From positions 4,125 to 68,124 of the forward strand of contig CANNFQ010000018.1 of assembly GCA_947503925.1 (NCBI GenBank): a stretch of 64,000 bases of DNA, written 5' to 3'. The translations under genes were made by a program, and so were the position numbers. Positions 14,804 through 58,844 of the stretch are shown in pieces. The DNA comes from an uncultured Rhodobacteraceae bacterium (GTDB lineage: Bacteria; Pseudomonadota; Alphaproteobacteria; Rhodobacterales; Rhodobacteraceae). The first letter of the stretch is position 1. Each line of letters starts with the position of its first letter. The notes beneath the pieces are model-generated. The model was not told the origin of the DNA. It was given only the letters and a program-made list of their open reading frames with translations, and made no database searches.

Positions 14804-14827
14804 GGTGCGATGTCTAGAGGCTGGGTT

Positions 14828-20554: not shown

Positions 20555-20809
20555 AAAAAATTGCACAAACAACGGCTGAAAAACTGCCACATTCTCGTTA
20601 TATCACATAAGAGGGCGTTGCAGCGGTTCCCAAAAGCCTGTTTCAGGTTTACCGCAAGACGCTGTTGTTTTGAGGTTTACGAGTAATATGTGGCGCTGCT
20701 GAATTGTTGCGGTGTTGTTTTTTGAAGGTAAAAATTATAATGAAAACAGGTTTTTGCAAGGTCCCTATGGTCCTTGATCCGTGCGCTGCCAATCGGGAAG
20801 CCAAACATC

Positions 20810-23305: not shown

Positions 23306-23337
23306 CCGATCCGCACGTTTCGCAAGGCAAGCCCATT

Positions 23338-33552: not shown

Positions 33553-33594
33553 CGCATGTTCACGCGCCGGTCTGTTCCGGCGCATAGAAGGGTA

Positions 33595-34578: not shown

Positions 34579-34582
34579 CACC

Positions 34583-37500
34583 ATGTCCCAGTTCAGCGCT
34601 GTCATTATCGGTAATGAATCCCTAGCCATCCAATGCGCCGAGATGCTGCGCGAGGGCGGGCATGATCTGCAGGCCGTCATCACCCGCAACCCCGATATTC
34701 AAAGCTGGGCGGATGCCGCCGGGATCACCAGTTATACAGCCGATGCAGATCTGACCGAAGCCCTGTCCGGGCATCGTTTTGACTGGCTTTTATCCATCGC
34801 CAATCTCGACATGATCCCCGATGCCGTGCTGGCCCTGCCTGCGCGCGGTGCGGTGAATTTTCATGATGGCCCCCTGCCCCGCTATGCCGGGCTGAATGCC
34901 CCGGTCTGGGCCTTGCTGGGGGGCGAGGTCGAATATGGCATCAGCTGGCATATGATCAGCGGTGGCGTGGATGAAGGTGCGCTGCTGGCCCAGCAATTCT
35001 TTGACATCGCCCCTGATGAAACCACGCTGACCCTGAACACCAAATGCTATGGCGCGGCTATCGAGAGTTTCCCCACGGTCATGGGTAAGCTGGCGCAGGC
35101 GGACCCTGTCCTGACCGCACAGGATCTGTCGCAGCGCAGCTATTTTGCCAAAAATGACCGCCCCGCAGCAGCAGGCCGCCTCGATTTCACCAAGACCGCC
35201 CGCAATATCACCACGCTGGTGCGCGCGCTGGATCATGGCACTTATTGGAACCCGCTGACCTGCCCGAAATTTGAAGCTGGCGGCAAGGTCTGGCTGGTCA
35301 GCAGCGCCATGGCCGGTCATGCCGCCGCTGACAGCCCTGCGGGCACCGTACTGGCGGTCGAGGATGACAGCCTGACTGTGGCCAGTGCCACGGCCCCGGT
35401 GACCTTGGGCGGGTTGCGCGATGCCACGGGGGCCCCGGTATCTGCCAGCGCGATTGCCGCTGTTGGCGATACGCTGCCCTCCCCCGATGCGGATATGGCT
35501 GCCGCGCTGACGGCCGCCTTAAAAGCCACGCTGAAATCCGAACCGCAATGGCGCGCCCGGCTAGAGCGGATGACCCCGGCCAGCCTGCCACTGATTGATC
35601 TGGCGGCGGAGGCCGGAGAGGTCACCAAGACGCCTTTGGCCGGTGATCCTGGTGATCTGCGCCGCGCCATGGCCGCATTGGCCCTTGGCCTGAATGAAAA
35701 TGCCGATGTCACATTGGCCTTGCATCTGGGTGATGCGCATCCCGGTTATCTGAACAGCTGGGGTCCGGTCAGCGCGGCGGATTTGGATGACAGTATCGCC
35801 AATGCACAGGCGCTTGGCCCTTTTGCCGCTGACCTGATCGCCCGCACCCCCGGTCTCGACCGGCCTGTCACCCCGGCCCTTGGCCTGTCGGATGCGACCC
35901 ATATCACAGGCACCGCCCTGACATTGGGTGGTCAGACGCTCTTTGCCGATACCGGCAAGATCACCCCTGATGCTGTGACCCTGATGGCGGACCGGTTGGC
36001 ACATATGGCCGCGCAGATCGCCAAAGGTGACGTCCCAACCCTGTTGACGGAGGCCGAGCGCCAGAAGGTGCTGTTTGACTGGAACGCCACAAAGGTGGAT
36101 TTCCCGGAAAGCCAATGCATCCATCAGGCGTTCGAGGCGCAGGTGGCCCGCACCCCCGATGCCGAGGCCCTGTCATTTGAAGGCGAAAGCCTGACCTATG
36201 CCCAGCTGAATGCGCGCGCCAATGAAATGGCCCATATCCTGATGGGGATGGGTGTTGGCCCGGATGCGATTGTCGGCCTGCATCTGCCCCGGTCCAGCGC
36301 GCTTTTGATCGCAGCCCTTGCCATTATGAAGGCGGGCGGGGCCTATCTGCCGATGGACCCGGCTTATCCGGCGGACAGGACAGCCCTTTATATCAGCGAT
36401 TCAAAGACGCAGATCATCGTCACCGATACAGCCTTGGCTGCCGCATTACCTGATACGGATGCCAAGGTGCTGGCGGCGGATGATCTGCCCGATGCCCCGT
36501 CATCGGACAATCCCGACAGTGCCGTCACCAGCGCCAATCTGGCCTACATGATCTATACATCCGGATCGACCGGACGCCCCAAAGGGGTGATGGTTGAACA
36601 TCGCAATGTGGCGAATTTCTTTACCGGGATGGATGCGCGCATCGCCCATGACCCTGCGGGTGTCTGGATGGCAGTGACCAGCCTGTCCTTTGATATTTCG
36701 GTGCTGGAGCTGTTCTGGACCTTGGCGCGGGGGTTCAAGCTGGTGATCAGCGGCGATGAAAGCCGTGCGCTTGTGGCCGGTGACAGCACGGCCAGCACAG
36801 GCGCGATGGATTTCAGCCTCTATTACTGGGGCAATGATGATGGGGTGGGGCGTGATAAATACCGCACCTTGCTGGAAGGCGCGCAATTTGGCGACAAACA
36901 CGGGTTCTGTGCGGTCTGGACGCCGGAGCGGCATTTCCACGCCTTTGGCGGCCCCTATCCCAACCCATCCGTGACAGGGGCGGCGGTGGCGGCGGTGACC
37001 AAGAACCTTGCCGTGCGCGCAGGCTCCTGCGTCGCCCCCCTGCACCATACCGCACGCATTGCCGAGGAATGGGCGGTGATCGACAATATCACCAATGGCA
37101 AGACAGGCCTGGCGATTGCGTCAGGCTGGCAGCCGGATGATTTCATCCTGCGCCCCGAAAATACGCCGCCCAAGAACAAACCGGCGATGTTTGAACAGAT
37201 CCGCGATCTGCGCAAACTCTGGTCGGGTGAAAAGGTCGCTTTCCCCCGTGCGGATGGGGAAATGCATGAGGTGCTGACCCAGCCGCGCCCGGTTTCCAAG
37301 AAACTGAATGTCTGGGTGACCACAGCGGGCAATCCCGAAACCTGGAAAGAAGCGGGCCGTAATGGTTGTAACGTGCTGACCCATCTTCTGGGGCAAAGCG
37401 TGGATGAGGTGGGCGAGAAGATCACCCTTTATCACGCTGCCCTGCGCGAAGCGGGCCATGATCCGGCGGATTTCACCGTCACGCTGATGCTGCATTCTTT

Positions 37501-39229: not shown

Positions 39230-39864
39230 GCCATGATGCGCTTGCTGGGGCCCTGCGCGCTTTGCTGGGCCCTGCTGTCGGGATTGGAGTCACCGATCCG
39301 GCGGATGCGATTGATGATCTGTGGGAGGTCGAAAACCCTGCCATGGCCCGGGCGATCCCCAAACGCCGATACGAGTTTGCCGCTGGCAGGCGCGCGGCCC
39401 GCGCGGCCATGGCCGTCCTTGGCCTGCCGCCTGCCGCGATCCGCCAAGGTTCTGACCGGGCGCCGGTCTGGCCTGCCGGGCTGACAGGGTCGATTGCCCA
39501 TTGTGAGACGGTTTGCATCGCAGCCGCCAGCCCGCACCACCGCAGCATCGGGATTGATATCGAACCGGCGGATGATTTGCCCGCAGATTTGATCACGATC
39601 ATCTGCACCGATGCGGAACAGGCATGGTTGCCCCAAACCGGGCGCGGGCGCGTGGCCAAACAGATATTCAGCGCCAAGGAGGCTGTCTATAAGGCCCAAT
39701 ACCCGCTGACCGGGCGGATCATCGGGTTTGATGACCTGGATTTATCGCCTGCGGGGGATGGGTGCCTTGCCATTACATTCACCGATCCCGCAATGCCTGC
39801 CGCATTACAATCTGTCACCTTCACCGAGGTGGAAAATATGATCATTTCCGCTTGCAAATGCTGA
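39226..39864 (+). CDS. 4'-phosphopantetheinyl transferase (EntD-like)
   Basis: KRRYEFAAGR, PVWPAGLTGSIAH, IGIDIE, FSAKEAVYKA. Confidence 0.92.
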   Translation: MSHDALAGALRALLGPAVGIGVTDPADAIDDLWEVENPAMARAIPKRRYEFAAGRRAARAAMAVLGLPPAAIRQGSDRAPVWPAGLTGSIAHCETVCIAAASPHHRSIGIDIEPADDLPADLITIICTDAEQAWLPQTGRGRVAKQIFSAKEAVYKAQYPLTGRIIGFDDLDLSPAGDGCLAITFTDPAMPAALQSVTFTEVENMIISACKC

Positions 39865-41458: not shown

Positions 41459-44400
41459 TTGGCTCACATGTCCTCTAGCGACAGAAACCTCTCAGCTCTC
41501 CTCGCCGCTGGCCTTGACCGTAATACGGCCTCCAAGGGGCCTGCATTTGATATCACCACGCCGGGCTTTGCAGCGAAATTCTTTGCGCTGGACGGTATGG
41601 TTTCGTCACTTGATGAGATCGATTTCTCGGCTGATCCTGATGCAACAGCAATCGTCAATGACATCGATTACCGGGGTGATGGCTCTTTCTGGCTTGGCGG
41701 TCCGGCCGATATGTTCGCCGCACAGTATGAAGGCACATTGACGGTGGAGACGGCGGGCGAATACCGCTTCAATCTGAATTCCGATGATGGGTCATCCCTG
41801 TCAATCGGTGGCAATGAAGTCATCGACAATGATGGTTTACATGCTGCGATGACCGAAACGGCAACGATCTATCTGGAGGCTGGCACACACCGGATTGATC
41901 TGCGCTATTTCGAGGCCCGTGGTGGACAGACGCTGCAACTGGACTGGGCCGGGCCCGACACCAATGGCGCGATGACACGCTTGGATGGTGACCATGTCAC
42001 CCATGAGATTGACCAGTTCATCATCGCCAACCAATCCTACAAGGCCCGCAGACGCGACAGTTTTGATTTTGAATGGACCGGCGGCAAGGGCGACGCATCC
42101 AAACCTACGACGCCGGAACCAACACCTGATCCGGAGCCAACACCTGATCCGGAGCCAACACCCGATCCGGAACCAACGCCTGATCCGGAGCCAACACCCG
42201 ATCCGGAACCAACGCCTGATCCAGAGCCAACACCTGATCCAGAGCCAACGCCTGATCCAGAGCCAACGCCTGATCCAGAGCCAACGCCTGATCCAGAGCC
42301 AACGCCTGATCCGGAGCCAACGCCTGATCCGGAACCAACGCCTGATCCGGAACCAACGCCTGATCCGGAACCAACGCCTGATCCGGAACCAACGCCTGAT
42401 CCGGAGCCAACGCCCACACCAACCCCGCCAACCGGCGAAGATCAGGGCGGCGATTCCAGCGGTGGCGGCACCGGGGAAGAGGTGCCAACCAGTTCCGGCT
42501 CTTATTCGGTGGCAGGTGGCCGGGTCACAACCCTGGCCGTTGATAACCTAGACAGCGTCGCGAATATCCGCATCATCAATGGCCCCGATCACGGGACCCT
42601 GACAGTGAACCCGGATAATACGATGGCACTTGTGCTGAGCATGGAGCATGAGTTCAACGGTGCGCTCGATATCAGCTATGAGGTGACCTATAACGACGGG
42701 TCAGCCCGGATCTTCAATGACGATATCCAGGTCGCACGCACGACCCAGGATAAAGGCTGGGGTGACGGTACGTTCTACATGCTGGAAACCGATGCCAGCG
42801 ATGATGTGATCGTCGAAACCGGTGATAACCACCGCAAGGTGTTCATTTCCGGCGATGATGATGCGCTGAGCCTGGCCGATATCGCGGCCCTGGAAGGCAT
42901 TTCCGTCGGTCAGATCGACCGCAGATGGATGAGCGAGCATCAGGAATATGGTGCCACCGAGGGCATGGCCCTGGATGCCCAGGCCGGTATGATGATGTGG
43001 TATGCCATCACTGGTGTTGGCACCGATCCGTCATCGCATTGGCTGATGTTCGAACGCGGCTATGAATATAATAACCTTGGCCGTGTCATCGACAGTGGCA
43101 CATTGGGTGAAGATCCGCTGCACCCGATCCATATTACCGCTTATGGTGAAGGCGACCGGCCGACCATTAACTCGACCATCACCACGACACAGGTTGATAG
43201 CCAGAACATCGTCTTTTCCGATCTGGAACTGACGGCTGGCTTCTCATCCTTAGGTGGTGAGAACATGTTGATGCATAACATGGATATCAGCAACAATTCC
43301 GCTGAGGCCCATACCGGGATGGGGCTGAATGTCGTCCGGGTTGACGGCTTTACGCTGCATAATTCCTCTGTCACGGATACATACCGTCCGGATCAGGCAG
43401 GCAGCACATGGGGTGTGCATCACACATCTGGCGCGCATATCGCCGAAAATGATGGCGTTCTGATCGAAGGCACATTGTTTGACCGCAACGGTTTTGCCGA
43501 AGACTGGCGCACTGATGCCTCCACCGCGGGCGGCCAGGCGCCGACGCAATTTGTCCATAACATCTATGTGCAGGACAATGTGGATGACTTCACCCTGCGC
43601 GACAGCATCCTGATGCAAGGTGGTTCAATCGGGGCCAAGATCCGCACCGGTGGTTTCCTTGAAGACAATGTCATCATCGAGGCCAATGTTGCTGCCTCCT
43701 TGCTGGGTGGTGTGCCATCTGACCAGAATGGCATCCGGACCGGGAATTTCACCCTTGCCACGGATAACGTGATCACATCCGCCGGACACCGGCAGCGTGA
43801 TGACCAGTCTAACGGGGCGCTTTCACGCGGGATCGACAATGCGGGGATGGATACTGTTCTGCTGGACAATATCATCGCCCATCTGGCCGACCCGAATAAT
43901 GCCGCTGAACAGGCTGAAAAGACGACGATCAGCGAGTCGCAGAACAACTTCCTTGATACGCCCTATTTCGACGATACCACTGTCTTTAACTGGGATAATG
44001 ACAAGAATGTCGAAGGTCTTGATCAGAATATTCTGAACGCCACCACGATCCAGATCTTTACCCAGCAGCTCTTGGGTAATGCGAATGCGACCATTGCTGA
44101 TCTGGCTGATTTCCTGCGCGCCCAGGCCTTTGGCGAGCTGGACACAGTGGTTGATGCCGATCTGATCATTGCTTTCTTCCAGGCCGGGTTTGGCCTGTCA
44201 GTCGATGCCCGCCTGACGGCGGAAACCCTGCGCTTTGTCCCCAATGATCTGGGCGACGGGATCCGCTGGGATAACCGCCTGAACTGGAGCACCGAAGACC
44301 TGCCCGGCACGATCAACGGCGATTCCGTTGATCTGGGCGGCAACTGGATCAATTACGGTGGCACCAACACGCTGAACAATCTCGATTTCGGCTCTGGCGG

Positions 44401-45145
44401 GACATTGAATGTCACCCATGGCCGCCTGAATGTCGAAGGGCAGACGATGGCTGGGGCCGATGGTGCAACGCTGAATATCAGCGATGCCGGGCAGATCTGG
44501 GTTGATGGCTATACCGACAGCGACATGCTGGATGTGAATGTTGATGGCGGCCGCTTTGCCAATACCGGGCTGTATCACGGTGCAACCGATATGAATGTCA
44601 CCGATGGTCAGGCGATCTTGGCCACGGGCGGGGCTGATTTCATCCTGCGGGCCGGCAGCACGCTGGAAGTGACCGGCGATGACGGCAAAACTGGCTTTGA
44701 CGGCGACAATGGCGGCACTGCCGTCTTGTTGCTGGATGACGATTCCACATTGCGCTTTGACGTGGAGGACGGTGAGCTTGGTATCATTTCGGAGTTCCGC
44801 TCTGGTGCCTTTGGTGACGGCCCGAATGTCCAATCCGGTGTCAATCTGGGTGACAGCACGCTGGAGCTGGACCTGTCCGGCCGCGGCAGCACGATCACCT
44901 CTGACGTGTTAATCGAAGTGGATGATCTGATTGGCCAGTTTGCGGATATCGACGTGACAGGCCTTGCCAGCAACCGCAATGCCGAAGTGGTCATCGATTA
45001 TAATACCGATACGGTCACCCTGAATGTTACTGCCGGGTCCGGCCAAAGCACGATCCGCACCGTTGGTGACGAAGAAAATGCCCGTTCCAATGGTGATCTT
45101 TGGAATGCCCTGAATGACGGGCATGGGGTCTTTGATCTGGGGTAA
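41459..45145 (+). CDS. Large secreted-type protein: PA14 - (PEPTPD)n linker - Ig/cadherin-like - beta-helix
   Basis: PA14 motif YRFNLNSDDGS..IDNDGLH..YFEARGG; Pro/Thr linker; GPDHGTLTVNPDNT cadherin-like repeat; HNIY-containing beta-helix. Start may be ATG 41468. Confidence 0.8.
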   Translation: MAHMSSSDRNLSALLAAGLDRNTASKGPAFDITTPGFAAKFFALDGMVSSLDEIDFSADPDATAIVNDIDYRGDGSFWLGGPADMFAAQYEGTLTVETAGEYRFNLNSDDGSSLSIGGNEVIDNDGLHAAMTETATIYLEAGTHRIDLRYFEARGGQTLQLDWAGPDTNGAMTRLDGDHVTHEIDQFIIANQSYKARRRDSFDFEWTGGKGDASKPTTPEPTPDPEPTPDPEPTPDPEPTPDPEPTPDPEPTPDPEPTPDPEPTPDPEPTPDPEPTPDPEPTPDPEPTPDPEPTPDPEPTPDPEPTPDPEPTPDPEPTPTPTPPTGEDQGGDSSGGGTGEEVPTSSGSYSVAGGRVTTLAVDNLDSVANIRIINGPDHGTLTVNPDNTMALVLSMEHEFNGALDISYEVTYNDGSARIFNDDIQVARTTQDKGWGDGTFYMLETDASDDVIVETGDNHRKVFISGDDDALSLADIAALEGISVGQIDRRWMSEHQEYGATEGMALDAQAGMMMWYAITGVGTDPSSHWLMFERGYEYNNLGRVIDSGTLGEDPLHPIHITAYGEGDRPTINSTITTTQVDSQNIVFSDLELTAGFSSLGGENMLMHNMDISNNSAEAHTGMGLNVVRVDGFTLHNSSVTDTYRPDQAGSTWGVHHTSGAHIAENDGVLIEGTLFDRNGFAEDWRTDASTAGGQAPTQFVHNIYVQDNVDDFTLRDSILMQGGSIGAKIRTGGFLEDNVIIEANVAASLLGGVPSDQNGIRTGNFTLATDNVITSAGHRQRDDQSNGALSRGIDNAGMDTVLLDNIIAHLADPNNAAEQAEKTTISESQNNFLDTPYFDDTTVFNWDNDKNVEGLDQNILNATTIQIFTQQLLGNANATIADLADFLRAQAFGELDTVVDADLIIAFFQAGFGLSVDARLTAETLRFVPNDLGDGIRWDNRLNWSTEDLPGTINGDSVDLGGNWINYGGTNTLNNLDFGSGGTLNVTHGRLNVEGQTMAGADGATLNISDAGQIWVDGYTDSDMLDVNVDGGRFANTGLYHGATDMNVTDGQAILATGGADFILRAGSTLEVTGDDGKTGFDGDNGGTAVLLLDDDSTLRFDVEDGELGIISEFRSGAFGDGPNVQSGVNLGDSTLELDLSGRGSTITSDVLIEVDDLIGQFADIDVTGLASNRNAEVVIDYNTDTVTLNVTAGSGQSTIRTVGDEENARSNGDLWNALNDGHGVFDLG
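42113..42412 (+). repeat. In-frame 18-bp tandem repeat, 16 full units plus a partial 17th (PEPTPD)
   Basis: Units CC[G/A]GA[A/G]CCAAC[A/G]CC[T/C]GAT counted directly. Confidence 0.97.
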
Positions 45146-46506: not shown

Positions 46507-46654
46507 TCGGCAATAGTGGCACCCAAAATCTGAGGCGCGTTTTCCCGCACCGCCTAAAAGACACAGGCGACCAAAACCACAATGATCCCCGGCGTCTCTG
46601 TTTACATTGTGCAGGCGGTTCGCTAACGAGAAGATGTTAAAAAGTGTGAGTGTT

Positions 46655-47383
46655 ATGAAAAAATTTCTTCTTTTGTCTCTTTTGGCCTGTTTTACAGTAT
46701 TTTCGGCCGGTATCGCCTCTGCTGCGACAATCAATATCTACCAATCATCAGGTACCAAGATACGGTCATCGGCCGGTGTCGGCGAAAGCACGGCCACCGA
46801 AGGGCGTCATCTGGCTGGCTCTCTTGTGACGGTGACTTATGCTGATGGCACCACCGAAGATCTGGTCTGGCGCCGCGTTGGTCGCTATTCGCTTGGCGGC
46901 GCCTATGGCAATGACATCACAATTTCGCAAAGCGGTGGCCCGATGGTCATCGATGCCCTGAAAACCGTCAGCGCAATCTATATCGACCTGGCCCCGTCCA
47001 AGACGATTTTCGATATCATCGATACCCGGGGTAATCCCGATCCGACTGCCAGCACACCATCGACAAGCTTTGGCACCCCGTTTTCCATCGAACGTGGCGG
47101 TGAAGGTTTGGTCGGGCAGATTGATGTGACATATTCCGGCATCGTCAATATTGCCGGGCATGCCGCTGTTGGTGATATCTACACCCGTATGTTGGTTGAT
47201 TTTTCCGGTCTGACCAGCGGTGGTTTCCTGGGACGCATGCGCATTGAAGGTGATACGGATTCACTGGCCGATAATGCCGTCATGTCTGTTGTCCCCCTGC
47301 CTGCTGGTCTGCCCCTGCTGATCGCGGGTCTGGCCATGTTCGGGTTCATGCGCACCCGCCGCAAGGCAGCCGCGATTGCCTGA
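46655..47383 (+). CDS. VPLPA-CTERM sorting-domain protein (exosortase D substrate)
   Basis: Signal peptide MKKFLLLSLLACFTVFSAGIASA; C-terminus SVVPLPAGLPLLIAGLAMFGFMRTRRK (VPLPA + TM + basic tail). Confidence 0.95.
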   Translation: MKKFLLLSLLACFTVFSAGIASAATINIYQSSGTKIRSSAGVGESTATEGRHLAGSLVTVTYADGTTEDLVWRRVGRYSLGGAYGNDITISQSGGPMVIDALKTVSAIYIDLAPSKTIFDIIDTRGNPDPTASTPSTSFGTPFSIERGGEGLVGQIDVTYSGIVNIAGHAAVGDIYTRMLVDFSGLTSGGFLGRMRIEGDTDSLADNAVMSVVPLPAGLPLLIAGLAMFGFMRTRRKAAAIA

Positions 47384-49563: not shown

Positions 49564-51135
49564 ATGCCCCGTTTTTCTGACCGAAGCTTTTTCATCATGC
49601 TTGTTGCGACGCTTGTCTTTGCGACGCTCTACCGGCTTTACCCGCTTGTTGTGGGGGAACCGGCGCTGGCACAGGCCTTCATGACCGAAGACGGTTATCT
49701 GATGCTGACCATTGCCCGCAACATGGCCATTGGGTTGGGCATGTCGGTGTCTGACGGTACGATTGCCAGCAATGGTGTGCAACCGATGGCAACGTTCCTT
49801 TTTGCCGGTTCTTATCTGGTGACCGGTGGTGACAAGGTTGCGGGGCTCTGGGGTGTGCAGCTGACCGGGGCAATCATCGCTGTGATCGGGATTTTCACGG
49901 TCCGCGCCCTGGCCCGGGTGTTGCTGGCCCCGCAGGATGCTACCCCAATCTGGCCATGGCTGGTGGCCACGATGTGGTTTGTCAGCCCCCTGCTACTGCT
50001 GCATACGATGAACGGGCTGGAAACCGGGCTTTATACCGTGATGGTCACCCTAAGCCTGGTGGTCTTTGCCCGGCTTTTGCACAAGGGGGATACGGCTGGA
50101 CTGGCGGATCGCATGCTGTTGGGGGCCGCTTGCGGGGTTGCCTTTCTGGCCCGCAATGATGCGGTGTTCCTGATCGGGGCGATCGGGCTGGTCTGGCTGT
50201 TTCATACCTTGGTCATCCGCCGCCGCCCGCTGGGTGCCGTGATTGCCGAACTGATCCCCCCTGCCCTGCTTGTGGCGCTGATCGCATCGCCCTGGCTGAT
50301 CAATAACTACGTGAATTTCGGATCCATCGTGCCAGTCAGCGGCACCGCGCAATCGCTGAGCGGCGGTTTGGCCAGGAATGCCGATATCCTGCCCGCTGTC
50401 CTGTTTGAATATGTCTTTCCGATGCTGCCTGTGCCGGTGCGGCTGCAATATGCCCCGGCCTTCATGATCTGCGCCAGTATCGTTATCCTGATCATTCTGG
50501 CTAGTTTTGTCCTGCAGGTCTGGCGCCGTGGCGGCACCGCCCGCCATGTGATGATGGCCTATATGATCTTTGCCCTGCTGATGTGCCTTTATTACGGGTT
50601 CTATTTCGGCGCAGGCTGGTTTTTGAGCCGCTATCTGTCCCCCCTTGCCCCGCTGTTGATCACTGCCACCCTGTCTGTCGCCCTGTCACTGGTGCGCTGG
50701 CTGATCCCGGCCCGGGCCACGGGTGCCATCTATACGCTGGGCCTGTTGAGCGTGGTACTTTGCATTGCCCTGCTCGGCCGCTACCTGCTGCCCGGCACCA
50801 AGGAACAGGGCCATTTTCAGGTAGTGGACTGGGTGACGGAGAACGTGCCCGCTGAAACATGGGTCGGGGCGGTCCAGACCGGCACGCTGGGCTATTGGCA
50901 TGACAGGACCATCAATCTGGATGGCAAGGTCAACCCAGCCGCCTTGCAAGCACAGCTGACCGAAGGCGATGTGCTGAATTATGTGCTGCAAAGCCCGATC
51001 ACCTATCTGGCCGATTGGGAAGGCATTGCCTATTGGGTCACAACGGCCAACCGGGGCAACACGGCATTTAGCGACAGCTTTGCCGTTGTGGTCCATGACG
51101 TGCCCGGCAATCTTGCCGTGCTGAAACGCCAGTGA
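49564..51135 (+). CDS. GT-C membrane glycosyltransferase (AftB/ArnT-like)
   Basis: TEDGYLMLTIARNMAIGLG..NGVQP loop after TM1, NGLET, LARND; about 12 TM segments and a periplasmic C-domain (NLDGKVN). Confidence 0.72.
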   Translation: MPRFSDRSFFIMLVATLVFATLYRLYPLVVGEPALAQAFMTEDGYLMLTIARNMAIGLGMSVSDGTIASNGVQPMATFLFAGSYLVTGGDKVAGLWGVQLTGAIIAVIGIFTVRALARVLLAPQDATPIWPWLVATMWFVSPLLLLHTMNGLETGLYTVMVTLSLVVFARLLHKGDTAGLADRMLLGAACGVAFLARNDAVFLIGAIGLVWLFHTLVIRRRPLGAVIAELIPPALLVALIASPWLINNYVNFGSIVPVSGTAQSLSGGLARNADILPAVLFEYVFPMLPVPVRLQYAPAFMICASIVILIILASFVLQVWRRGGTARHVMMAYMIFALLMCLYYGFYFGAGWFLSRYLSPLAPLLITATLSVALSLVRWLIPARATGAIYTLGLLSVVLCIALLGRYLLPGTKEQGHFQVVDWVTENVPAETWVGAVQTGTLGYWHDRTINLDGKVNPAALQAQLTEGDVLNYVLQSPITYLADWEGIAYWVTTANRGNTAFSDSFAVVVHDVPGNLAVLKRQ

Positions 51136-51151: not shown

Positions 51152-52042
51152 ATGATGGAACTGAGCGCATCTGACTATGCAGCCGCCCGCGCACATCTGC
51201 TGGGCGAGGATGCAACAGTGCTGATCCGGTTCATGGCCCATCAAAGCGTGGGCAGCAAAGACGCGGAATTTTCCGATACGGTGGCGGAACTGGCGCAAAA
51301 TCTTGGCTGGATTGACCCTGATACCGGCCTGCGCACCACATTGGGTATCCTGATCAGTGATTCCTGCCGCGAATATCTGTTCTGGAAAGAACGCGACCAG
51401 CGCCTGCCTTTTGAAGACGCCCTGCCGCATCTGGTCCGGACCACGTTTCAGGGCAAATATATCGCTGAAATCGGCGCGGGCATGGGGGTGAACCTGATGT
51501 CACTGGCAGGCACCGCAGACCAGCTTTGCGGGGTTGAACCGGTCGTGGCCTATGCCCAGATGGGCCAGATTTTCCGTGACCGCGAAGGTACCACGGATAT
51601 CGATATCAAGACCGGCGGCGCCGAAGATCTGCCCTTTGCCGATCAGGAGCTTGATCTGGTCTTATGCGTATCAGCGCATCAGTATTTCGATATCCACCCT
51701 GCCTTGGCCGAGATCGCCCGCGTGACCAAACCCGGGGGAGAGCTGATCATTATCGGCAATACGCTGGGCCATTACAGCTGGGATTTTGGCAAACAGGTGA
51801 TCCGCAGCCGGGGCCGTGGGCTAAAAAGCTATGTCATGACATTGGTTAATACGCTCAGCTATCAACTGCTGGGGCGGCGGGTGCTGGTCAATCGCAGCGG
51901 GTTTTCAACGGCAAGACCGATCTATCCTGCAGCCGCCGCCATGACCCGCTGGTTACATGCGACAGGCTTTGAAACCCTTGTCGCCCCACAGCGCGCCGAA
52001 AATGAAACCTGTTTTTATGTCCGCCGCAAAGAGGATCACTGA
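51152..52042 (+). CDS. Class I SAM-dependent methyltransferase
   Basis: IAEIGAGMG, GVEP, AEDLPFADQELDLV, EIARVTKPGG. Confidence 0.88.
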   Translation: MMELSASDYAAARAHLLGEDATVLIRFMAHQSVGSKDAEFSDTVAELAQNLGWIDPDTGLRTTLGILISDSCREYLFWKERDQRLPFEDALPHLVRTTFQGKYIAEIGAGMGVNLMSLAGTADQLCGVEPVVAYAQMGQIFRDREGTTDIDIKTGGAEDLPFADQELDLVLCVSAHQYFDIHPALAEIARVTKPGGELIIIGNTLGHYSWDFGKQVIRSRGRGLKSYVMTLVNTLSYQLLGRRVLVNRSGFSTARPIYPAAAAMTRWLHATGFETLVAPQRAENETCFYVRRKEDH

Positions 52043-52172: not shown

Positions 52173-53612
52173 ATGGATATTACCCATTTGAAAGGTCAGC
52201 GCATTCTGGCCGTTGATCTGGATGGAACGCTGCTGCGGTCAGATATGCTGTTTGAAAGCTTCTGGTCGGCCACCAGCCGCGATTGGCGTGTGCCTGTGCA
52301 GGCAGGCCTTGCCCTGTCAAAAGGGCGTGCCGCGCTGAAACGCAGCCTGTCGGCCAAGATGAATGTCGATGTCACCACCCTGCCCTATGATGCACAGGTG
52401 ATCGCCTATATCGAAGCATGGCGCGCGGATGGTGGGGCTGCCATTCTGGTGACCGCATCCGATGACAGCATTGCCCGGGACATCGCCGCCCATCTGGATA
52501 TTTTTGATGCCGTGCAAGGCTCTGACGGGACAAGAAACCTCAAATCGGCCGAAAAAGCCGCCTTTCTGACCGACCATTTCGGCAAAGCCGGCTATGCCTA
52601 TATGGGCGATGCCGAAGCCGACCTGCCGGTCTGGGAAAACGCCCAAAAGGCGGTGACCGTCAATCTTAAGGACCCGTTGCGCCAAACGGTTGATAAGTTG
52701 GGGGTTGAGGTCGAGCATCTGGACACTGCCCGGACCGGGCTGCGCGATTACCTCAAGGCGATCCGGGTGCATCAATGGCTGAAAAACCTGCTGGTATTCC
52801 TGCCGATGTTTGCCGCCCACCAGCTTGACATGGTGACAATCACCCAAAGCCTGCTGGCTTTCGTGATCTTTTCAATGGTGGCATCAAGCATCTATGTGCT
52901 GAATGATCTACTGGATCTGCGCGCAGACCGCGCGCATCCGCGCAAATGCAAACGCCCCTTTGCCGCAGGTACGATCCCGATTGCCCATGCCACCTATATG
53001 ATTGCCGGGTTGATGGGCGCGGGGTTGATCCTGTCGTTGTTCCTGGGCTGGTATTTCCTGCTGGTCATGTTGCTTTATTTTGTTGCGACAACGGCTTATT
53101 CGCTTTGGCTGAAACGCAAGGCAATTGTCGATATTGGCACGCTGGCCGGGCTTTACACGATCCGCATCGTCGCAGGGGCGGTGGCCACCAGCATCCCCCT
53201 GTCGATGTGGCTTTTGGCATTTTCGGTCTTTTTCTTCTTCTCGCTGGCCACGGTGAAGCGGCAGGCAGAGCTGACGGATGGTGCCGCAAGGGGCAAGCTG
53301 AAAGCATCCGGTCGCGGTTATCTGGTGGATGATCTGCCAGTGCTGGTCATGATGGCCGTCGCCTCGGGCTATGTGTCCATTCTGGTGCTGGCGCTTTATA
53401 TCCAGTCGCCTTTCGTCTCAAAACTATATGGCACGCCCAAGGTGCTGGGGGTGATCTGTGGTGTGCTGCTTTACTGGGTATCGCGGGTGATCCTGCTGGC
53501 CCATCGCGGCCAGATGCATGACGATCCGGTTGTGTTTGCCGCAAGGGATCGCACCAGCCAGATTTGCGCGCTGGTGATCATCGCTGTGGCCTTTGGCGGG
53601 GCCTTCCTGTGA
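52173..53612 (+). CDS. HAD phosphatase - UbiA fusion: putative polyprenyl-phosphate phosphoribosyltransferase (DPPR synthase, Rv3806c/NoeC-like)
   Basis: N-terminal LAVDLDGT (HAD); R.HQWLKNLLVF, YVLNDLLD...DRAHPRKCKRPFAAG, KRQAE, DDPV motifs. Confidence 0.88.
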   Translation: MDITHLKGQRILAVDLDGTLLRSDMLFESFWSATSRDWRVPVQAGLALSKGRAALKRSLSAKMNVDVTTLPYDAQVIAYIEAWRADGGAAILVTASDDSIARDIAAHLDIFDAVQGSDGTRNLKSAEKAAFLTDHFGKAGYAYMGDAEADLPVWENAQKAVTVNLKDPLRQTVDKLGVEVEHLDTARTGLRDYLKAIRVHQWLKNLLVFLPMFAAHQLDMVTITQSLLAFVIFSMVASSIYVLNDLLDLRADRAHPRKCKRPFAAGTIPIAHATYMIAGLMGAGLILSLFLGWYFLLVMLLYFVATTAYSLWLKRKAIVDIGTLAGLYTIRIVAGAVATSIPLSMWLLAFSVFFFFSLATVKRQAELTDGAARGKLKASGRGYLVDDLPVLVMMAVASGYVSILVLALYIQSPFVSKLYGTPKVLGVICGVLLYWVSRVILLAHRGQMHDDPVVFAARDRTSQICALVIIAVAFGGAFL

Positions 53613-54031
53613 GCGGGCTGCGCATCGCCATTCTGTATGCGCTATTTGCTGTTGTGGCGACGGTGATCAATCTGGGGATACAGCGGGTTGTGCTGTCGTG
53701 GAATAATGATTTTCTAGGTTTTGCCCTTGCTGTTTTCTGCGGCACGCTGGCCGGGCTGGTGGTGAAATATGTGCTTGATAAGCGCTGGATCTTTGCTGAT
53801 GCCAGTACGGGCATCAAAGCCCATGGGCAGAAATTCACCCTTTATACGATCATGGGCCTTGTCACGACGGCGATCTTCTGGGGCACAGAAACCGCGTTCT
53901 GGCTGATCTGGAAGACGGATATAATGCGCGAGCTGGGTGCCGTGCTGGGCCTGTCTGTCGGCTATGTGGTCAAATATTTCCTCGACCGCCGCTTTGTCTT
54001 TCAACCCCATAAAGAGGCAGCCCTGTCATGA
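53609..54031 (+). CDS. GtrA family small membrane protein (lipid-sugar flippase candidate)
   Basis: 4 TM segments, KYVLDKRWIF / KYFLDRRFVF; GTG overlaps the upstream stop. Confidence 0.88.
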   Translation: MSGLRIAILYALFAVVATVINLGIQRVVLSWNNDFLGFALAVFCGTLAGLVVKYVLDKRWIFADASTGIKAHGQKFTLYTIMGLVTTAIFWGTETAFWLIWKTDIMRELGAVLGLSVGYVVKYFLDRRFVFQPHKEAALS

Positions 54032-55353
54032 CGGATCTGTCCGGTTGGGGTGGCTTTCCCAAACATCCTGCAACGCTCGCCTGCCCGGTCACGCAGGCCG
54101 ATCTGGCCCGCGCCATTGCCGATGGGGCCGTGATTGCCCGGGGCAATGGCCGCGCCTATGGCGACAGTGCCATCGGGCTGCGCAAAACCGTGCAGATGCA
54201 CGGGCTGAACCACATGATCAGCTTTGATCGACAAAACGGGTTTCTGGTGGCCGAGGCCGGTGTGCTGCTGCGCGATGTGATCACCGCGTTTCTGCCCCAT
54301 GGCTGGTTTCCCCCTGTCACCCCGGGCACGAAATTTGTCACTTTAGGCGGGATGATTGCCGCTGATGTGCATGGCAAGAACCACCACAAGGATGGCAGCT
54401 TCCGCAATTTCGTCGATTGGCTGGACGTGATGGATGCAAGCGGTGTGGTGCATCATTGCAGCCGGACCCAGAATGCCCAGCTGTTTGAATGGAGTATTGG
54501 CGGGATGGGGCTGACCGGGGTGATCCTGCGCGCAGGTATCCGGCTGCGCCCGGTGCCATCAGCCTGGATCCGGCAGACATCCCAGGCCTTGCCCAATCTT
54601 GATGCGGTGATTACGGCCTTTGAAGGGGCGGATGCCGCCACCTATTCGGTGGCCTGGATTGACTGTGTCAGCCGGGGTGCATCACTCGGCCGGTCGATCC
54701 TGATGTTGGGCGAACATGCGACCCCGGATGAGCTATCTGATGATGCGGCCCGTTATCCATTTGAAATTCCTGATAAAACGAAACGTACTGTGCCCTTTGC
54801 GATGCCTTTCAGCCTGCTGAACAGCCTGTCGGTCAGAGCGTTTAACGGGCTTTATTACTGGAATGGTCGGCGCAAGGCCGGGGTCAGCTTTGTCGATTAC
54901 GACACGTATTTCTATCCGCTGGATGCCATTCTGGGTTGGAACAAGATCTATGGCAGGCGCGGGTTCATGCAGTTCCAATGTGTCCTGCCGCTTGAGACCG
55001 CGCGCGAAGGATTGCGCGCCTTGCTGAAGACCACATCATTGGCTGGTGCGGGATCATTTCTGGCGGTGCTGAAACGGTTCGGGCCGCAGGACAGTGCCTT
55101 TTCCTTTCCGATGCTGGGCTACACATTGGCGCTGGATTTTCCGGCAACCCCGGGGATGATCGCGCTGATGCGCAAGCTGGACCAGATCACGCTGGATCAT
55201 CAGGGCCGGTTCTATCTGGCCAAGGATAGCCGCATGGCCCCGGACACGCTGCATGCATCGGACCCGCGCACAGCACAGTTCAAACAGATGCGTCAGGAAT
55301 TCGGTGCAACCGATGCTTTTCAATCAAAACAATCCGAAAGGCTCTTTCTATGA
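54028..55353 (+). CDS. dprE1: FAD-linked decaprenylphosphoryl-ribose 2'-oxidase-like protein
   Basis: ARGNGRAYGD, VTPGTKFVTLGGMIAADVHGKNHH, GGMGLTGVI, QFQ, FYLAKDSR. Confidence 0.88.
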   Translation: MTDLSGWGGFPKHPATLACPVTQADLARAIADGAVIARGNGRAYGDSAIGLRKTVQMHGLNHMISFDRQNGFLVAEAGVLLRDVITAFLPHGWFPPVTPGTKFVTLGGMIAADVHGKNHHKDGSFRNFVDWLDVMDASGVVHHCSRTQNAQLFEWSIGGMGLTGVILRAGIRLRPVPSAWIRQTSQALPNLDAVITAFEGADAATYSVAWIDCVSRGASLGRSILMLGEHATPDELSDDAARYPFEIPDKTKRTVPFAMPFSLLNSLSVRAFNGLYYWNGRRKAGVSFVDYDTYFYPLDAILGWNKIYGRRGFMQFQCVLPLETAREGLRALLKTTSLAGAGSFLAVLKRFGPQDSAFSFPMLGYTLALDFPATPGMIALMRKLDQITLDHQGRFYLAKDSRMAPDTLHASDPRTAQFKQMRQEFGATDAFQSKQSERLFL

Positions 55354-56087
55354 GCAAGGGAACCATGCTGCTTTTGGGCGCAAAATCCGACATTGGCCGC
55401 GCTGTTGCACATCGCTTTGCCGCCGCGGGGTATGATATTCAACTGGCCGCGCGTAACGCCGCGGCGCTGGAGGCCACAAAAACCGATCTGGCATTGCGGC
55501 ACAATATTGCGGTGAGCGTCCATGATTTTAATGTGTTGCAGACCGACACCCATGCCGGGTTTGTTGATGCCCTGCCCGCCCTGCCCGATATCGTGGTCTG
55601 TGCCATTGGGCTGATGGGCGACCAGATCGCAAATGAACAGGATTTTGATGCTGCCACCCGGGTGATGCGCAGCACCTATGAAGGGCCAGCGCATATTCTG
55701 GGCCTTCTGGCCAATCGCTTTGATGCGCGCGGGTCCGGGCAGATCGTGGGGATCAGTTCGGTTGCGGGCAATCGCGGCCGAGCCAAGAATTACGTCTATG
55801 GATCGGCCAAGGCCGGGTTTACCGCCTATCTGTCAGGCCTGCGCAACCGAATGGCCAAACGCGGCATTCACGTGCTGACCGTGCTGCCCGGCTTTGTGAA
55901 CACCCAGATGACAGCAGGCATGGACCTGCCGGAAAAACTGACGGCTGAACCCGAAGAGGTGGCGACAGCCGTGTTCAACGGGCTGCGCAAGGGGCGTAAT
56001 ATCATCTATGTGCGCCCCATCTGGTTTGTGATCATGACCATCATCGGGTCGATCCCGGAACGCATTTTCAAGAAGATGAATATCTGA
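55350..56087 (+). CDS. dprE2: Decaprenylphosphoryl-2-keto-pentose reductase-like SDR
   Basis: LGAKSDIG, SSVAGNRGRAKNYVYGSAKAG, PGFVNTQMT; coupled to the dprE1-like gene. Confidence 0.85.
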   Translation: MSKGTMLLLGAKSDIGRAVAHRFAAAGYDIQLAARNAAALEATKTDLALRHNIAVSVHDFNVLQTDTHAGFVDALPALPDIVVCAIGLMGDQIANEQDFDAATRVMRSTYEGPAHILGLLANRFDARGSGQIVGISSVAGNRGRAKNYVYGSAKAGFTAYLSGLRNRMAKRGIHVLTVLPGFVNTQMTAGMDLPEKLTAEPEEVATAVFNGLRKGRNIIYVRPIWFVIMTIIGSIPERIFKKMNI

Positions 56088-56103
56088 CAGGGCAGCCCCG
56101 TCA
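56083..56103 (+). terminator. Possible stem-loop at the end of the DPA operon
   Basis: CTGAC-AGGGC-A-GCCC-C-GTCAG imperfect hairpin spanning the stop codon; no U-tract. Confidence 0.3.
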
Positions 56104-56304
56104 GAACACGCCACCCAGCAGGAAATTGGGGTGCGCAAAGATAGGTCTATGCAACAATGCCTGTCTGTCTGATCACACCTGGTGGCAGGCCCGTTCGGCT
56201 GGGGCCTCACCGCGATCAGGGCGACTTACATTGACAATATCGCACGACCATCAGAAGATAGCTGCATAGATTAGAAAAATTTTTATTCGTTCATAGAGTG
56301 ACCT

Positions 56305-57858
56305 ATGTTGCATCAGTCATCAGGTTTTCACCTGCTTATATCGATATGTGTTACCCTTATCGGGGTATTCCTTACAAAGCTGATACTGGACCCTTCAACA
56401 GGGTTTGATGACGCCAATATCACCATGAACTTTGCCCAGAACATCGCCAATGGCGCTGGCTATGTGTACTATATCGGTGGTGAACGGGTTGAAGGCTCAT
56501 CATCAGCCCTTTGGACCCTGATCAACACGGTCGCGTTCCTATTTTTTGATCATATTGAAAGCCCATTATCCGCTCTGGGCCTGATCATCTGTATCGCCAC
56601 GATTTATATCGCTATCCAGATCACGCATTTGCTTTTGGTGGCAGGCGGGAAAGGCGACGGCCCAGCATGGTTAACAGGTGCTGCGTTTCTATTCTTTCCG
56701 TCCTATTTTGCCTATATGGTCTGGAGCTTGATGGATATGGGCCTGTTCATCCTGCTTTCGCTGACAATGTTTTACTGCCTCATGCGGCTGATAAAGGCCG
56801 GCCCGTCCCGGTTTTATGGCGTAACTTTCATTGTTTGCGCGGCATTGCTGAGTGCAGCACGCCCTGAAGGTGTTGCTGTCGCTGTTGGGATGAGCGCCCT
56901 TTTGTGGATTGGCCTTCGCATCATTGATCAGCAAAAAATCTCTGGCGTGGCGATTGCCGGGCTTGTTGCCGCCCTTGGCATGATCGCCGTTCTGACACTC
57001 ATCCGGCTCTGGTATTTTGGGCAACCGGTCCCCAATACATTCTACGCCAAAGTATCGACAAGCTATGCCAGCCAGCTGATAGCGGGAATGAAATATTCAA
57101 TCCGCTATCTTTATGATCCCATGAACCTGGGGATGATCGCCCTGTTTTTCATCGCAATCGCCGTGATGACACGTATAAAAATCGTCATTGTGTTCTGGCT
57201 GATCGCATTGTGTTGCTGTGCGGGGGTGTTCGGCATTTATTCGGCCCTTGGTGGTGACCACTTCGGGTCTTTCCGGTTTTATCAGGTGCTGACGCCACTC
57301 TTGCTTCCTTGGGCTGTTGCGGCTGCCATTGTCCTGGGGACAACATCCTCAAAACATGCAGACGGATGGCAAAAAAGCATGCGTATACTGGCAAGCGCCA
57401 TTCTGCTTGTCGCTGCCTGGGGACAGTTCACCCAAACCAAAGGCGGCATTGCTATTGATTTTCGCATCGCCGAAGCAGGCCGATTGTCCGGAGAGGTCTT
57501 GAATGATTTTGAGCCCGCGCCATCACTTGGCATTCTTGCCGCCGGCGGCATTGCGATGACATATGAGGGCGCGATTTTTGATCTGCTTGGGCTCAACTGG
57601 GTGGAAATGGCCCATAGTAACCGGTCCGCCATGCGCGTCAAAAATAACAGCGGCTTCAGTCAGGACGTCTTTTTTAACAACCCCCCAGATTTGATCCTCC
57701 CGGAAATTCGCGACTGCGGCTTACCTCCAATGGATTATCAATGGGTTATGGATGAAGTCATCGCGTCGGATACTTTCCAACAGCTTTATCGTTACGATTG
57801 CTACCGTGGGGTGGCTTTCTTCATCAAGAGGGATATTCCTCTGCCCGCTGCATCATGA
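56305..57858 (+). CDS. AftB-like arabinofuranosyltransferase (GT-C)
   Basis: DDANITMNFAQNIANGAGYVYYIGGERVEGSSSALW matches the AftB-type DD..I....N...G.G....GERVE...S..W loop; ARPEG, GDHF, DLLGL. Confidence 0.78.
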   Translation: MLHQSSGFHLLISICVTLIGVFLTKLILDPSTGFDDANITMNFAQNIANGAGYVYYIGGERVEGSSSALWTLINTVAFLFFDHIESPLSALGLIICIATIYIAIQITHLLLVAGGKGDGPAWLTGAAFLFFPSYFAYMVWSLMDMGLFILLSLTMFYCLMRLIKAGPSRFYGVTFIVCAALLSAARPEGVAVAVGMSALLWIGLRIIDQQKISGVAIAGLVAALGMIAVLTLIRLWYFGQPVPNTFYAKVSTSYASQLIAGMKYSIRYLYDPMNLGMIALFFIAIAVMTRIKIVIVFWLIALCCCAGVFGIYSALGGDHFGSFRFYQVLTPLLLPWAVAAAIVLGTTSSKHADGWQKSMRILASAILLVAAWGQFTQTKGGIAIDFRIAEAGRLSGEVLNDFEPAPSLGILAAGGIAMTYEGAIFDLLGLNWVEMAHSNRSAMRVKNNSGFSQDVFFNNPPDLILPEIRDCGLPPMDYQWVMDEVIASDTFQQLYRYDCYRGVAFFIKRDIPLPAAS

Positions 57859-57864
57859 TGATAT

Positions 57865-58698
57865 TTATGCGGGTCGTGCGACATAGTTGAAACTGGTGAA
57901 GTCATCCGGATCATCCAGTTCAAAATGGTTGACCTGTATCTGATTGCCATCATCATCGACACAAAACACCCGATAGCCGTGTTCTGAAAGGATGTCCCAG
58001 ATTTCCTGTGCAACCTGCCTTTGATGGGTGCAGGTATCTTCGGGCAGAAAGTCGTGATCATCGCCAGTAAAATTGGGCATAACTTCAAAGAAAAGAATGG
58101 GTTGGGCGTTTTTTAAGGTCTTTTGCAATCCCTCCAATACGCTGAGTTCAGCCCCTTCGACATCGATCTTGATAATACCGGGGTTGGTGCATCCAAGTTC
58201 TTGCAATACCGCATCGCCCGCACGCATCTGCACGTAATTGATATTGCTATATGCGCGCCCTTGAACATTTCCGATCAAAGACCCCATTTCGTCGAAAGCA
58301 CCGTTCGAATAGAATTTCACGAGCCTGTCGTCGTCAGACAGTGCGAGCGGCAAAACATGAAAATCCTTGATATCGTTGTCTTTCAGGAAGGTGCCGATCA
58401 GGTGGCAACAGGCATGTTGTGGCTCAAAGCCGAAATACGTCCGGTTTGGATCGACCCCAAGCACCTTGAGCATGGTTTGACCAATATTTGCACCTATATC
58501 GATGAAAGCCCCCGGGCGTTCATCGAGTGCCTCAGCTATCAGCGCATTTATTGCCTCTTCATGATGGACAGTTTGCATCCCGAGGCGATTGGCAAAGTAG
58601 CCTCTGATCTTATACTGGTTCTTGCCTATTTGTAGCGTATGCCCAAGCTGATAACGCAGCAGCGGTAAATGGTAAGACAGCCTTTGAAAAAACGGCAT
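57865..58698 (-). CDS. FkbM family methyltransferase
   Basis: FIDIGANIG, GFEP, IKIDVEGAELSVLEG. Confidence 0.9.
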   Translation of the reverse strand: MPFFQRLSYHLPLLRYQLGHTLQIGKNQYKIRGYFANRLGMQTVHHEEAINALIAEALDERPGAFIDIGANIGQTMLKVLGVDPNRTYFGFEPQHACCHLIGTFLKDNDIKDFHVLPLALSDDDRLVKFYSNGAFDEMGSLIGNVQGRAYSNINYVQMRAGDAVLQELGCTNPGIIKIDVEGAELSVLEGLQKTLKNAQPILFFEVMPNFTGDDHDFLPEDTCTHQRQVAQEIWDILSEHGYRVFCVDDDGNQIQVNHFELDDPDDFTSFNYVARPA

Positions 58699-58844
58699 AA
58701 AAACACCTTGAACGAATTATTTCTCGGTTGCGTCGATCTTGTCACCGGCATCCTTGAATACTGCTGTTCAACGTAGCGTTATTGTATGATTTCGTCGAGC
58801 CACATGATTTTAGGGCCAGTGCCACCTTGCCCAGGCCCGGTCGG

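Follow-up and report, generated by a model that had tools for sequence, protein, structure and literature searches.

The window analyzed here, a stretch of 64,000 nucleotides (nt) from an uncultured bacterium of the Rhodobacteraceae, contains at 52173-56087 four genes encoding, in this order, a fused HAD-UbiA protein, a small membrane protein of the GtrA family and homologs of DprE1 and DprE2, and near them lie the genes for two membrane proteins of the GT-C fold, called here GT-C1 (upstream) and GT-C2 (downstream). A sequence-only reading had proposed that an overlapping operon encodes a complete mycobacterial-type pathway for the donor of D-arabinofuranose (D-Araf) and is flanked by two AftB-like transferases, and every open reading frame (ORF) that it had named was found where it had been placed. 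Adjacent genes overlap by 4 nt at all three junctions (GTGA, ATGA, and ATGA), when the GtrA gene is counted from the GTG at 53609, and the four genes therefore form one translationally coupled operon. This GTG is most likely the start of the GtrA gene, rather than the TTG at 53564 from which the mechanical ORF begins, because the gene of a close relative was called there (140 amino acids (aa), with the same 4-nt overlap).

The predicted domains were also confirmed. The first protein matches NCBIfam PRK08238 over its full length with 618 bits (cut-off 351) and its top relative in the PDB is 8j8j, the decaprenyl-phosphate phosphoribosyltransferase (DPPR synthase) Rv3806c of Mycobacterium tuberculosis (E 4.4e-30). 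Its HAD domain (Pfam, 4e-7, residues 14-153) has an intact loop-I motif DLDGT (residues 15-19), including the catalytic Asp, and in its UbiA domain (Pfam, 6.7e-22) the NDxxDxxxD loop is intact as NDLLDLRADR (residues 243-252). The GtrA protein, whose gene overlaps both of its neighbors, scored 170 bits on NF037976. For the third protein, DprE1 accounted for all of the top nine PDB matches (1.8e-76 to 3.1e-71), with cytokinin dehydrogenase as the next family at 5.9e-11, and the motifs HGKNHH and AKDSR are kept. Benzothiazinones bind covalently to Cys387 of mycobacterial DprE1; unlike the mycobacterial enzyme, the homolog has an Ala at this position (GYTLALDFP). The fourth protein, a short-chain dehydrogenase/reductase (SDR), was matched by NCBIfam PRK07102 with 343 bits, above cut-off, and over its full length by the DprE2 model, and has a Gly-rich NAD(P) motif GAKSDIG (residues 10-16) and the YxxxK motif as YGSAK (residues 150-154). 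With all four genes matched by hidden Markov models (HMMs) or PDB entries and with the catalytic motifs intact, the claim of a complete donor pathway stood, and the predicted route from phosphoribosyl pyrophosphate (PRPP) via polyprenyl-P-ribofuranose (polyprenyl-P-Ribf) to polyprenyl-P-Araf is very likely correct.

A homologous enzyme is thus present for every step of the mycobacterial decaprenyl-P-arabinose pathway (Rv3806c, Rv3807c, DprE1, DprE2, Rv3789), whereas the acceptor would be neither arabinogalactan nor lipoarabinomannan. The order of the genes for polyprenyl-phosphate phosphoribosyltransferase (PPPRS), GtrA, DprE1 and DprE2 is identical to that in the cluster PsPA7_6245-6249 of Pseudomonas aeruginosa Pa5196/PA7, of which PsPA7_6246-6249 are required for the glycosylation of pilin with D-Araf (bioRxiv 10.1101/2020.04.19.049825). 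In that cluster the phosphatase is encoded by a separate Rv3807c-type gene, whereas here a HAD domain is fused to the N-terminus of UbiA, as in ORF15 of Citrobacter youngae, which was shown biochemically to make polyprenyl-P-Ribf (Kelly et al., 2024; PMC11127046). The biochemistry of this homologous architecture bears out the proposal that the fused HAD replaces the separate phosphatase.

Two GT-C proteins near the operon

Searches of Pfam and NCBIfam, and of the PDB with single sequences, gave nothing useful for GT-C1 or GT-C2, and neither has a Pfam match. Homologs of GT-C2 occur mostly in marine Rhodobacterales and several carry the JGI label arabinofuranosyltransferase. A family profile built from 40 homologs matched one PDB molecule only, the mycobacterial AftB 9dlf (1.9e-15), over the transmembrane domain. 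An AlphaFold2 (AF2) model with a predicted local distance difference test (pLDDT) score of 89.8 has the GT-C fold, and Foldseek returned AftB as the top match (4.8e-7), followed by AftA, oligosaccharyltransferase subunits, and ArnT. AftB belongs to family GT89 and is characterized by retaining beta-(1->2) transfer of Araf onto an Araf acceptor. In the structure of AftB, D62 is the catalytic nucleophile and T91, E172, R221, T274, and R372 contact the donor analog (PMC12041299). By HMM alignment these residues of AftB (9dlf/9dlh) correspond in GT-C2 to D36, S66, D144, R186, T245, and R324, so that the catalytic Asp and all five donor-contact positions are conservatively retained, and none of the six, S/T66 and D/E144 included, shows more than conservative substitution among the 40 homologs. 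The pair D35-D36, which aligns with D61-D62 of AftB, the DD motif at the tip of the first periplasmic helix, is invariant in 40 of 40, and the other key elements are ERVE (60-63), RPE (186-188), and PNT (243-245). A GT-C enzyme with a DD motif is also found in the P. aeruginosa cluster, where the motif is essential in TfpW; TfpW is a protein of 646 aa with a large C-terminal domain, Emb-like rather than AftB-like, and its acceptor is pilin. GT-C2 differs from AftB in being about 150 residues shorter, with a different and shorter C-terminal domain, and in sharing only 16% identity, and its single sequence gives no match. Judged by profile and model, GT-C2 resembles AftB in its fold and in both the active and the donor site, but is distant from it.

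The family of GT-C1 is well conserved in Rhodobacterales (50-77% identity between members). Its profile found nothing significant in the PDB, AftB included, apart from a ribonuclease H-related protein matched by chance (E 1.4). The AF2 model (pLDDT 82) also has the GT-C fold, and here Foldseek placed ArnT (5f15) first (E 1.4e-6) and AftB fourth. An hhalign comparison of the GT-C1 and GT-C2 families gave a probability of 95%, which is the sole profile link of GT-C1 to AftB; in the profile-profile alignment the Asp, the acidic residue and the two Arg positions are retained in GT-C1, but the ERVE element is missing. GT-C1 shares with ArnT its fold and, putatively, the use of a pentose-type donor on a polyprenyl monophosphate. 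In sequence it has no detectable similarity to ArnT, the transferase for 4-amino-4-deoxy-L-arabinose (L-Ara4N) from undecaprenyl-P-L-Ara4N; it is not accompanied by arn genes and is linked instead to a PPPRS/DprE cassette. From profile and model, GT-C1 is therefore classed as a GT-C enzyme, not specifically an AftB-like one, and of the two AftB-like transferases that had been proposed only GT-C2, by profile, fold, and residues, can be kept as such.

The proposed flanking of the operon by the two proteins applies insofar as both have the GT-C fold and belong to families linked to the cassette; neither gene directly adjoins the operon (Table 1). A gene for a methyltransferase intervenes on the GT-C1 side, and the pair of GT-C1 and this methyltransferase is kept in 10 of the retrieved loci. 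GT-C2 lies outside the overlapping genes, beyond a hairpin and a 217-nt gap after the DprE2 homolog; scans for promoters and terminators gave background level only. The public runs found by a search were DNA metagenomes only.

Table 1. Coordinates in the window of the donor operon and adjoining features (FAD, flavin adenine dinucleotide; SAM, S-adenosylmethionine)
Feature	Coordinates	Strand	Basis
GT-C1, GT-C fold, ArnT-like, candidate pentofuranosyltransferase, 523 aa, ED motif at residues 42-43	49564..51135	+	AF2 model, Foldseek
Class I SAM methyltransferase (Methyltransf_11)	51152..52042	+	Pfam 1.1e-14
Predicted fused HAD phosphoribose phosphatase (N-terminal) and UbiA PPPRS (C-terminal), 479 aa	52173..53612	+	Pfam, NCBIfam, PDB
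GtrA-family small membrane protein, putative flippase of lipid-linked pentose	53609..54031 (mechanical ORF from TTG 53564)	+	NF037976
DprE1 homolog, VAO-type, predicted FAD-dependent polyprenyl-P-ribose 2'-oxidase	54028..55353	+	PDB DprE1 1.8e-76 over residues 22-439
DprE2 homolog, classical SDR, predicted 2'-keto reductase	55350..56087	+	NCBIfam
Inverted repeat, 10-bp stem, over the DprE2 stop codon; the variable cassette begins shortly after it (left edge 56127)	56083..56105	.	Sequence
Strain-variable cassette, GT-C2 and FkbM	56127..58813	.	blastn collinearity breaks; GC 0.48-0.52 vs operon 0.56-0.61
GT-C2, AftB-like GT-C arabinofuranosyltransferase candidate, 517 aa	56305..57858	+	Profile, AF2 model, Foldseek
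FkbM-family methyltransferase, within the low-GC variable cassette of GT-C2	57865..58698	-	Family profile, GC

Linkage to the donor cassette and variation between strains

The genomic neighborhoods (10 kb) of both GT-C families were surveyed. With one genome per species, 349 loci homologous to GT-C2 were found and 80 of them were retrieved; HAD-UbiA was present within 10 kb in 24 of the 80 and all four cassette genes in 13 of these 24. The order HADUbiA-GtrA-DprE1-DprE2-GTC2 was identical in 10 loci (Ruegeria, Yoonia, Shimia, Loktanella, and several metagenome-assembled genomes (MAGs)), and more distant examples of GT-C2 with the cassette came from MAGs of Steroidobacteraceae, Planctomycetota, and Opitutia. 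Among 80 metagenome loci with GT-C1, cassette genes (HAD-UbiA and/or DprE1/2) adjoin GT-C1 in 21, with the layouts HADUbiA-GtrA-DprE1-DprE2-GTC1 (three loci), HAD-UbiA followed by GT-C1, and GT-C1 followed by DprE1-DprE2. Of 72,556 plasmids searched, 84 carry HAD-UbiA (E 1e-30). All four plasmids with a GT-C2 homolog also have HAD-UbiA, as do four of the five with a GT-C1 homolog (adjoining it on plasmid p1 of Jannaschia CCS1); on the fifth, from the cyanobacterium Kovacikia, UbiA-DprE1-DprE2 lie divergently beside the GT-C1 homolog, so that a UbiA gene is present on 9 of 9 plasmids with either family. Both GT-C families are recurrent partners of the synthase.

An interpretation of GT-C1 as a core gene of a polyketide synthase (PKS)/exopolysaccharide (EPS) locus unrelated to the cassette, drawn from Litoreibacter and Ruegeria arenilitoris, was overturned by this linkage on plasmids and in metagenomes. 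Genes of the GT-C2 family were also observed in MAGs of Pontiella/Kiritimatiellales, Planctomycetota, Anaerolineales, and Polyangiaceae (19 loci), mostly cassette-free within 10 kb.

Relatives about 90% identical to the window at the nucleotide level were compared by blastn and are collinear with it save at two places. In one relative, a 1.1-kb segment with a gene for a 384-aa membrane protein stands in place of 56127-58813, the segment with GT-C2 and FkbM. At the second place, relatives carry an AftB-like gene, 57-59% identical to GT-C2 (9874-11530 of locus L006), inserted between convergent genes at a site corresponding to 8114-8119, where the window has nothing. In a third relative, a 72%-identical copy of GT-C2 has the PKS block on one side and the rml genes on the other. 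As the AftB-like gene is found at differing sites, the locus of this lineage retains such a gene but moves and exchanges it, as expected of a cassette that diversifies a surface glycan. That the two variable segments of the relatives share one replicon we infer from two contigs of 71,594 bp, non-overlapping in their retrieved parts, and from the contig of 71,224 bp that contains the window.

The membrane protein found in the variable slot has a paralog of 382 aa in the window (25749-26897), a polytopic protein without a match in Pfam, NCBIfam, or the PDB, whose family comprises 1135 representative clusters and has the conserved motif GNxWKQGDWLIN...VRRG. In the close relative, the gene that fills the slot of GT-C2 and FkbM (13929-15083, minus strand, of locus L085) lies directly 3' of DprE2. 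These proteins of 382-384 aa were considered as another GT-C family, but hhalign gave a probability of 1.2%, PDB and Pfam gave no match and a relation to GT-C could not be shown.

The surrounding exopolysaccharide locus

An XrtD exosortase is encoded at 4115-5752 on the minus strand (TIGR04152, 631.6 bits, cut-off 400) and a VPLPA-CTERM protein at 46607-47383 (TIGR03370, 29.6 bits, cut-off 25.35), in agreement with the exosortase context that had been claimed. The window also encodes Wzx, a Wzy-like protein, a chain-length determinant, a tyrosine kinase, rmlCBDA, several GT2 and GT4 enzymes, a deacetylase, an amidotransferase of the asparagine-synthase type, and an enzyme for the synthesis of 3'-phosphoadenosine 5'-phosphosulfate (PAPS). 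By its gene content, it is an XrtD/VPLPA-CTERM exopolysaccharide locus. A report on XrtD biology was not found in the literature searched. The enzyme for PAPS synthesis (13038-14756, minus strand) is a bifunctional sulfate adenylyltransferase/adenosine 5'-phosphosulfate kinase (1032 bits), and sulfotransferases are present on related plasmids; the glycan of the locus is probably sulfated, as judged from these genes.

Within the EPS locus, 27112-39864 encodes a type I PKS (KS-AT-KR-DH-ACP-TE), a GT2 enzyme, a 1548-aa protein resembling nonribosomal peptide synthetases (NRPSs) with formyltransferase, AMP-binding, luciferase-like monooxygenase, and PP-binding domains, and then a phosphopantetheinyl transferase. 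This block is kept beside the same EPS genes in three loci of Litoreibacter and Ruegeria and might make an acylated sugar or glycolipid. At 23302-25708 a gene for a GMC-family FAD oxidoreductase precedes one for an SDR, perhaps a second oxidase/reductase pair with a sugar as substrate; on a plasmid of Leisingera sp. NJS204 a GMC oxidoreductase gene lies directly 3' of the GT-C2 homolog. In the 1228-aa protein encoded at 41459-45145, which is 94% conserved in a close relative, only an N-terminal PA14 domain is recognizable.

Similar EPS loci were found on roseobacter plasmids, and roseobacter plasmids that carry a rhamnose operon are known as determinants of biofilm formation (PMC5030684). The window probably derives from a plasmid of about 71 kb resembling these biofilm plasmids, because its own contig is 71,224 bp long, two relatives have contigs of 71,594 bp with different linearization, and in a relative a ParB gene comes next after the rml operon (20612-21440 of locus L085).

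A candidate system for periplasmic D-arabinofuranosylation

Three-component systems, as described by Kelly et al. (2024), consist of a synthase, a MATE or SMR flippase, and a GT-C enzyme and add pentofuranose side chains after polymerization; in C. youngae O1/O2 the components are ORF15-ORF14-ORF12, with or without the epimerase ORF13 (PMC11127046). DprE1/E2 homologs accompany Araf-containing glycans in Stenotrophomonas and Rathayibacter, and uncharacterized systems, some with several GT-C proteins, occur in Rhizobium, Burkholderia, Xanthomonas, and Bacillus (PMC11127046). The corresponding parts were all found here, namely a UbiA PPPRS, a HAD phosphatase domain, a GtrA flippase candidate, and linked GT-C proteins, and as in C. 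youngae the flippase is small, the GT-C enzymes lie in a glycan locus and the epimerase forms an optional module. Unlike in C. youngae, the putative flippase is of GtrA rather than MATE type, the GT-C enzymes belong to one AftB-like and one ArnT-like family, the founding GT-C enzyme being of CAZy family GT136, and the host is a marine member of the Rhodobacteraceae with an XrtD/PKS-containing EPS locus.

From the gene order, overlaps, motifs, folds, homology to characterized enzymes and recurrent linkage, all observed directly, the locus is read as encoding periplasmic D-arabinofuranosylation by a three-component pentofuranose system to which an epimerase has been added, and we give this reading a probability of roughly 0.75. 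The fused HAD domain would take off the 5-phosphate, the DprE1 homolog (FAD) would oxidize C2' and the DprE2 homolog (NAD(P)H) would reduce it to yield polyprenyl-P-beta-D-Araf, and GtrA would flip the lipid-linked sugar to the periplasmic face. There, GT-C1 and GT-C2, which plausibly both use the product of the donor pathway, would transfer D-Araf to the glycan of the surrounding XrtD-type, rhamnose-containing Wzx/Wzy EPS locus, and GT-C2 with the FkbM methyltransferase would represent a swappable decoration cassette that differs between close strains. The lipid carrier is probably undecaprenyl, not decaprenyl, and by analogy with the described systems a polysaccharide is the most likely acceptor.

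Several points weigh against this reading. The reactions, the carrier lipid, the acceptor, and the sugar linkages are all deduced from sequence, and a report of D-Araf in roseobacter glycans was not found in the literature searched. The DprE1 and DprE2 homologs missed the NCBI equivalog cut-offs (392.6 bits against 500 and 189.6 bits against 250, respectively); as the NCBIfam models were built from actinobacterial sequences and the scores are below cut-off, both proteins are counted as homologs and not as curated equivalogs. GT-C2 is compositionally foreign (GC 0.49-0.52 vs 0.56-0.61 in the operon) and transcriptionally separate from the operon. The closest homologs of GT-C2 (57-72% identity) have no cassette within 10 kb; for those with 57-59% identity, collinearity suggests that it probably lies about 40 kb off on the same replicon. 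In addition, members of both GT-C families accompany HAD-UbiA at sites that lack DprE1/2, whether or not GtrA is there (loci L043, L046, and L103, Jannaschia, and Leisingera). Finally, the GT-C1-methyltransferase pair of Litoreibacter and R. arenilitoris is part of the PKS/EPS locus, and no cassette gene is found within 10 kb of it.

The scores below cut-off and the loci with HAD-UbiA but without epimerases might indicate that the DprE1/DprE2-like pair does not form Araf and that ribofuranose or another pentose is transferred. Such an outcome is considered highly improbable, since DprE1 was matched over its full length (1.8e-76) with the active-site motifs kept, the gene order is that of the genetically validated D-Araf cluster of P. 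aeruginosa, and DprE1/E2 homologs track with Araf-containing glycans (PMC11127046). The loci without DprE1/2 mean that the GT-C families alone do not dictate Araf, and the presence of some members with HAD-UbiA but not DprE1/2 suggests that the choice of pentose rests with the epimerase rather than with the GT-C family. This agrees with the reported donor promiscuity of the GT136 enzyme (PMC11127046). In Litoreibacter ascidiaceicola, HAD-UbiA and GtrA without DprE1/2, followed by a GFO/IDH/MocA oxidoreductase (10001-13229 of locus L086), were observed on the same contig as the GT-C1/PKS locus and may be a ribofuranose system or one with another epimer.

The same loci bear on whether the two GT-C enzymes might use different donors, GT-C2 taking polyprenyl-P-Araf and GT-C1, as a PKS/EPS core gene, taking un-epimerized polyprenyl-P-Ribf or an unrelated polyprenyl-P-sugar. 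This could explain the fold match of GT-C1 to ArnT, its failure to match AftB by sequence and its missing ERVE/T91-equivalent element, as well as the cassette-free GT-C1-methyltransferase pairs of Litoreibacter and R. arenilitoris and the pairing of GT-C1 homologs with HAD-UbiA alone in Jannaschia CCS1 and L103. However, GT-C1 homologs lie directly 3' of DprE2 in the three five-gene arrays and adjoin DprE1/DprE2 in more than 10 further contigs and on the cyanobacterial plasmid, the window and its close relatives have the GT-C1-methyltransferase pair immediately upstream of the operon, and the characterized GT136 enzyme accepts either pentose donor (PMC11127046). Separate donors are therefore regarded as a real but minor possibility, and a common D-Araf donor for both enzymes is preferred.

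As for the acceptor, the sequence-only reading had suggested an exosortase-sorted protein or EPS, as an acceptor class not yet described. The novelty of the class does not stand, as periplasmic pentofuranosylation of polysaccharides, with DprE1/E2 for Araf, was published in 2024 (PMC11127046). A protein acceptor, either the VPLPA-CTERM substrate of the exosortase or another surface protein, would be compatible with the presence of XrtD and the VPLPA-CTERM protein in the same locus, with the position of a VPLPA-CTERM gene directly 5' of the cassette on the plasmid of Ruegeria SCSIO 43209 and with the precedent of TfpW, which places Araf on a protein (bioRxiv 10.1101/2020.04.19.049825). Most cassette-linked homologs of both GT-C families, including some from phyla other than Pseudomonadota, lie in loci without VPLPA-CTERM genes, the window encodes a complete Wzx/Wzy apparatus for a polysaccharide, every three-component system described acts on glycans (PMC11127046), and neither a TPR nor another protein-recognition domain of the TfpW kind was seen. 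No evidence for a protein acceptor was thus obtained at this locus, and modification of a protein in place of the polysaccharide appears improbable.

Going beyond transfer of D-Araf to the polysaccharide as such, GT-C1 might prime the EPS backbone and GT-C2 then add a retaining beta-linked D-Araf cap, giving a short D-Araf side chain, and the swapping of the GT-C2 cassette would amount to a serotype switch on a biofilm-type plasmid of about 71 kb; this version is speculative and rather doubtful. To our knowledge, AftB of the Mycobacteriales is the only source from which a linkage of this kind has been reported to date.

The concept of such systems has already been published (Kelly et al., 2024), and what this locus adds, in marine bacteria, is a pair of new GT-C families as partners, of which one is related to AftB; the gain is one of scope and enzyme diversity, not of principle. 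Two uncharacterized GT-C families can now be named as candidate pentofuranosyltransferases, one a distant relative of AftB that extends beyond Pseudomonadota and the other without a family assignment. Cultured carriers, among them Ruegeria sp. SCSIO 43209 (plasmid unnamed5), Jannaschia sp. CCS1, and Leisingera sp. NJS204, offer concrete enzymes to glycobiologists and non-pathogen models for AftB-type chemistry. D-arabinofuranose is best known from the mycobacterial cell wall, and the present analysis predicts that it would also occur on the surface polysaccharides of abundant marine roseobacters.

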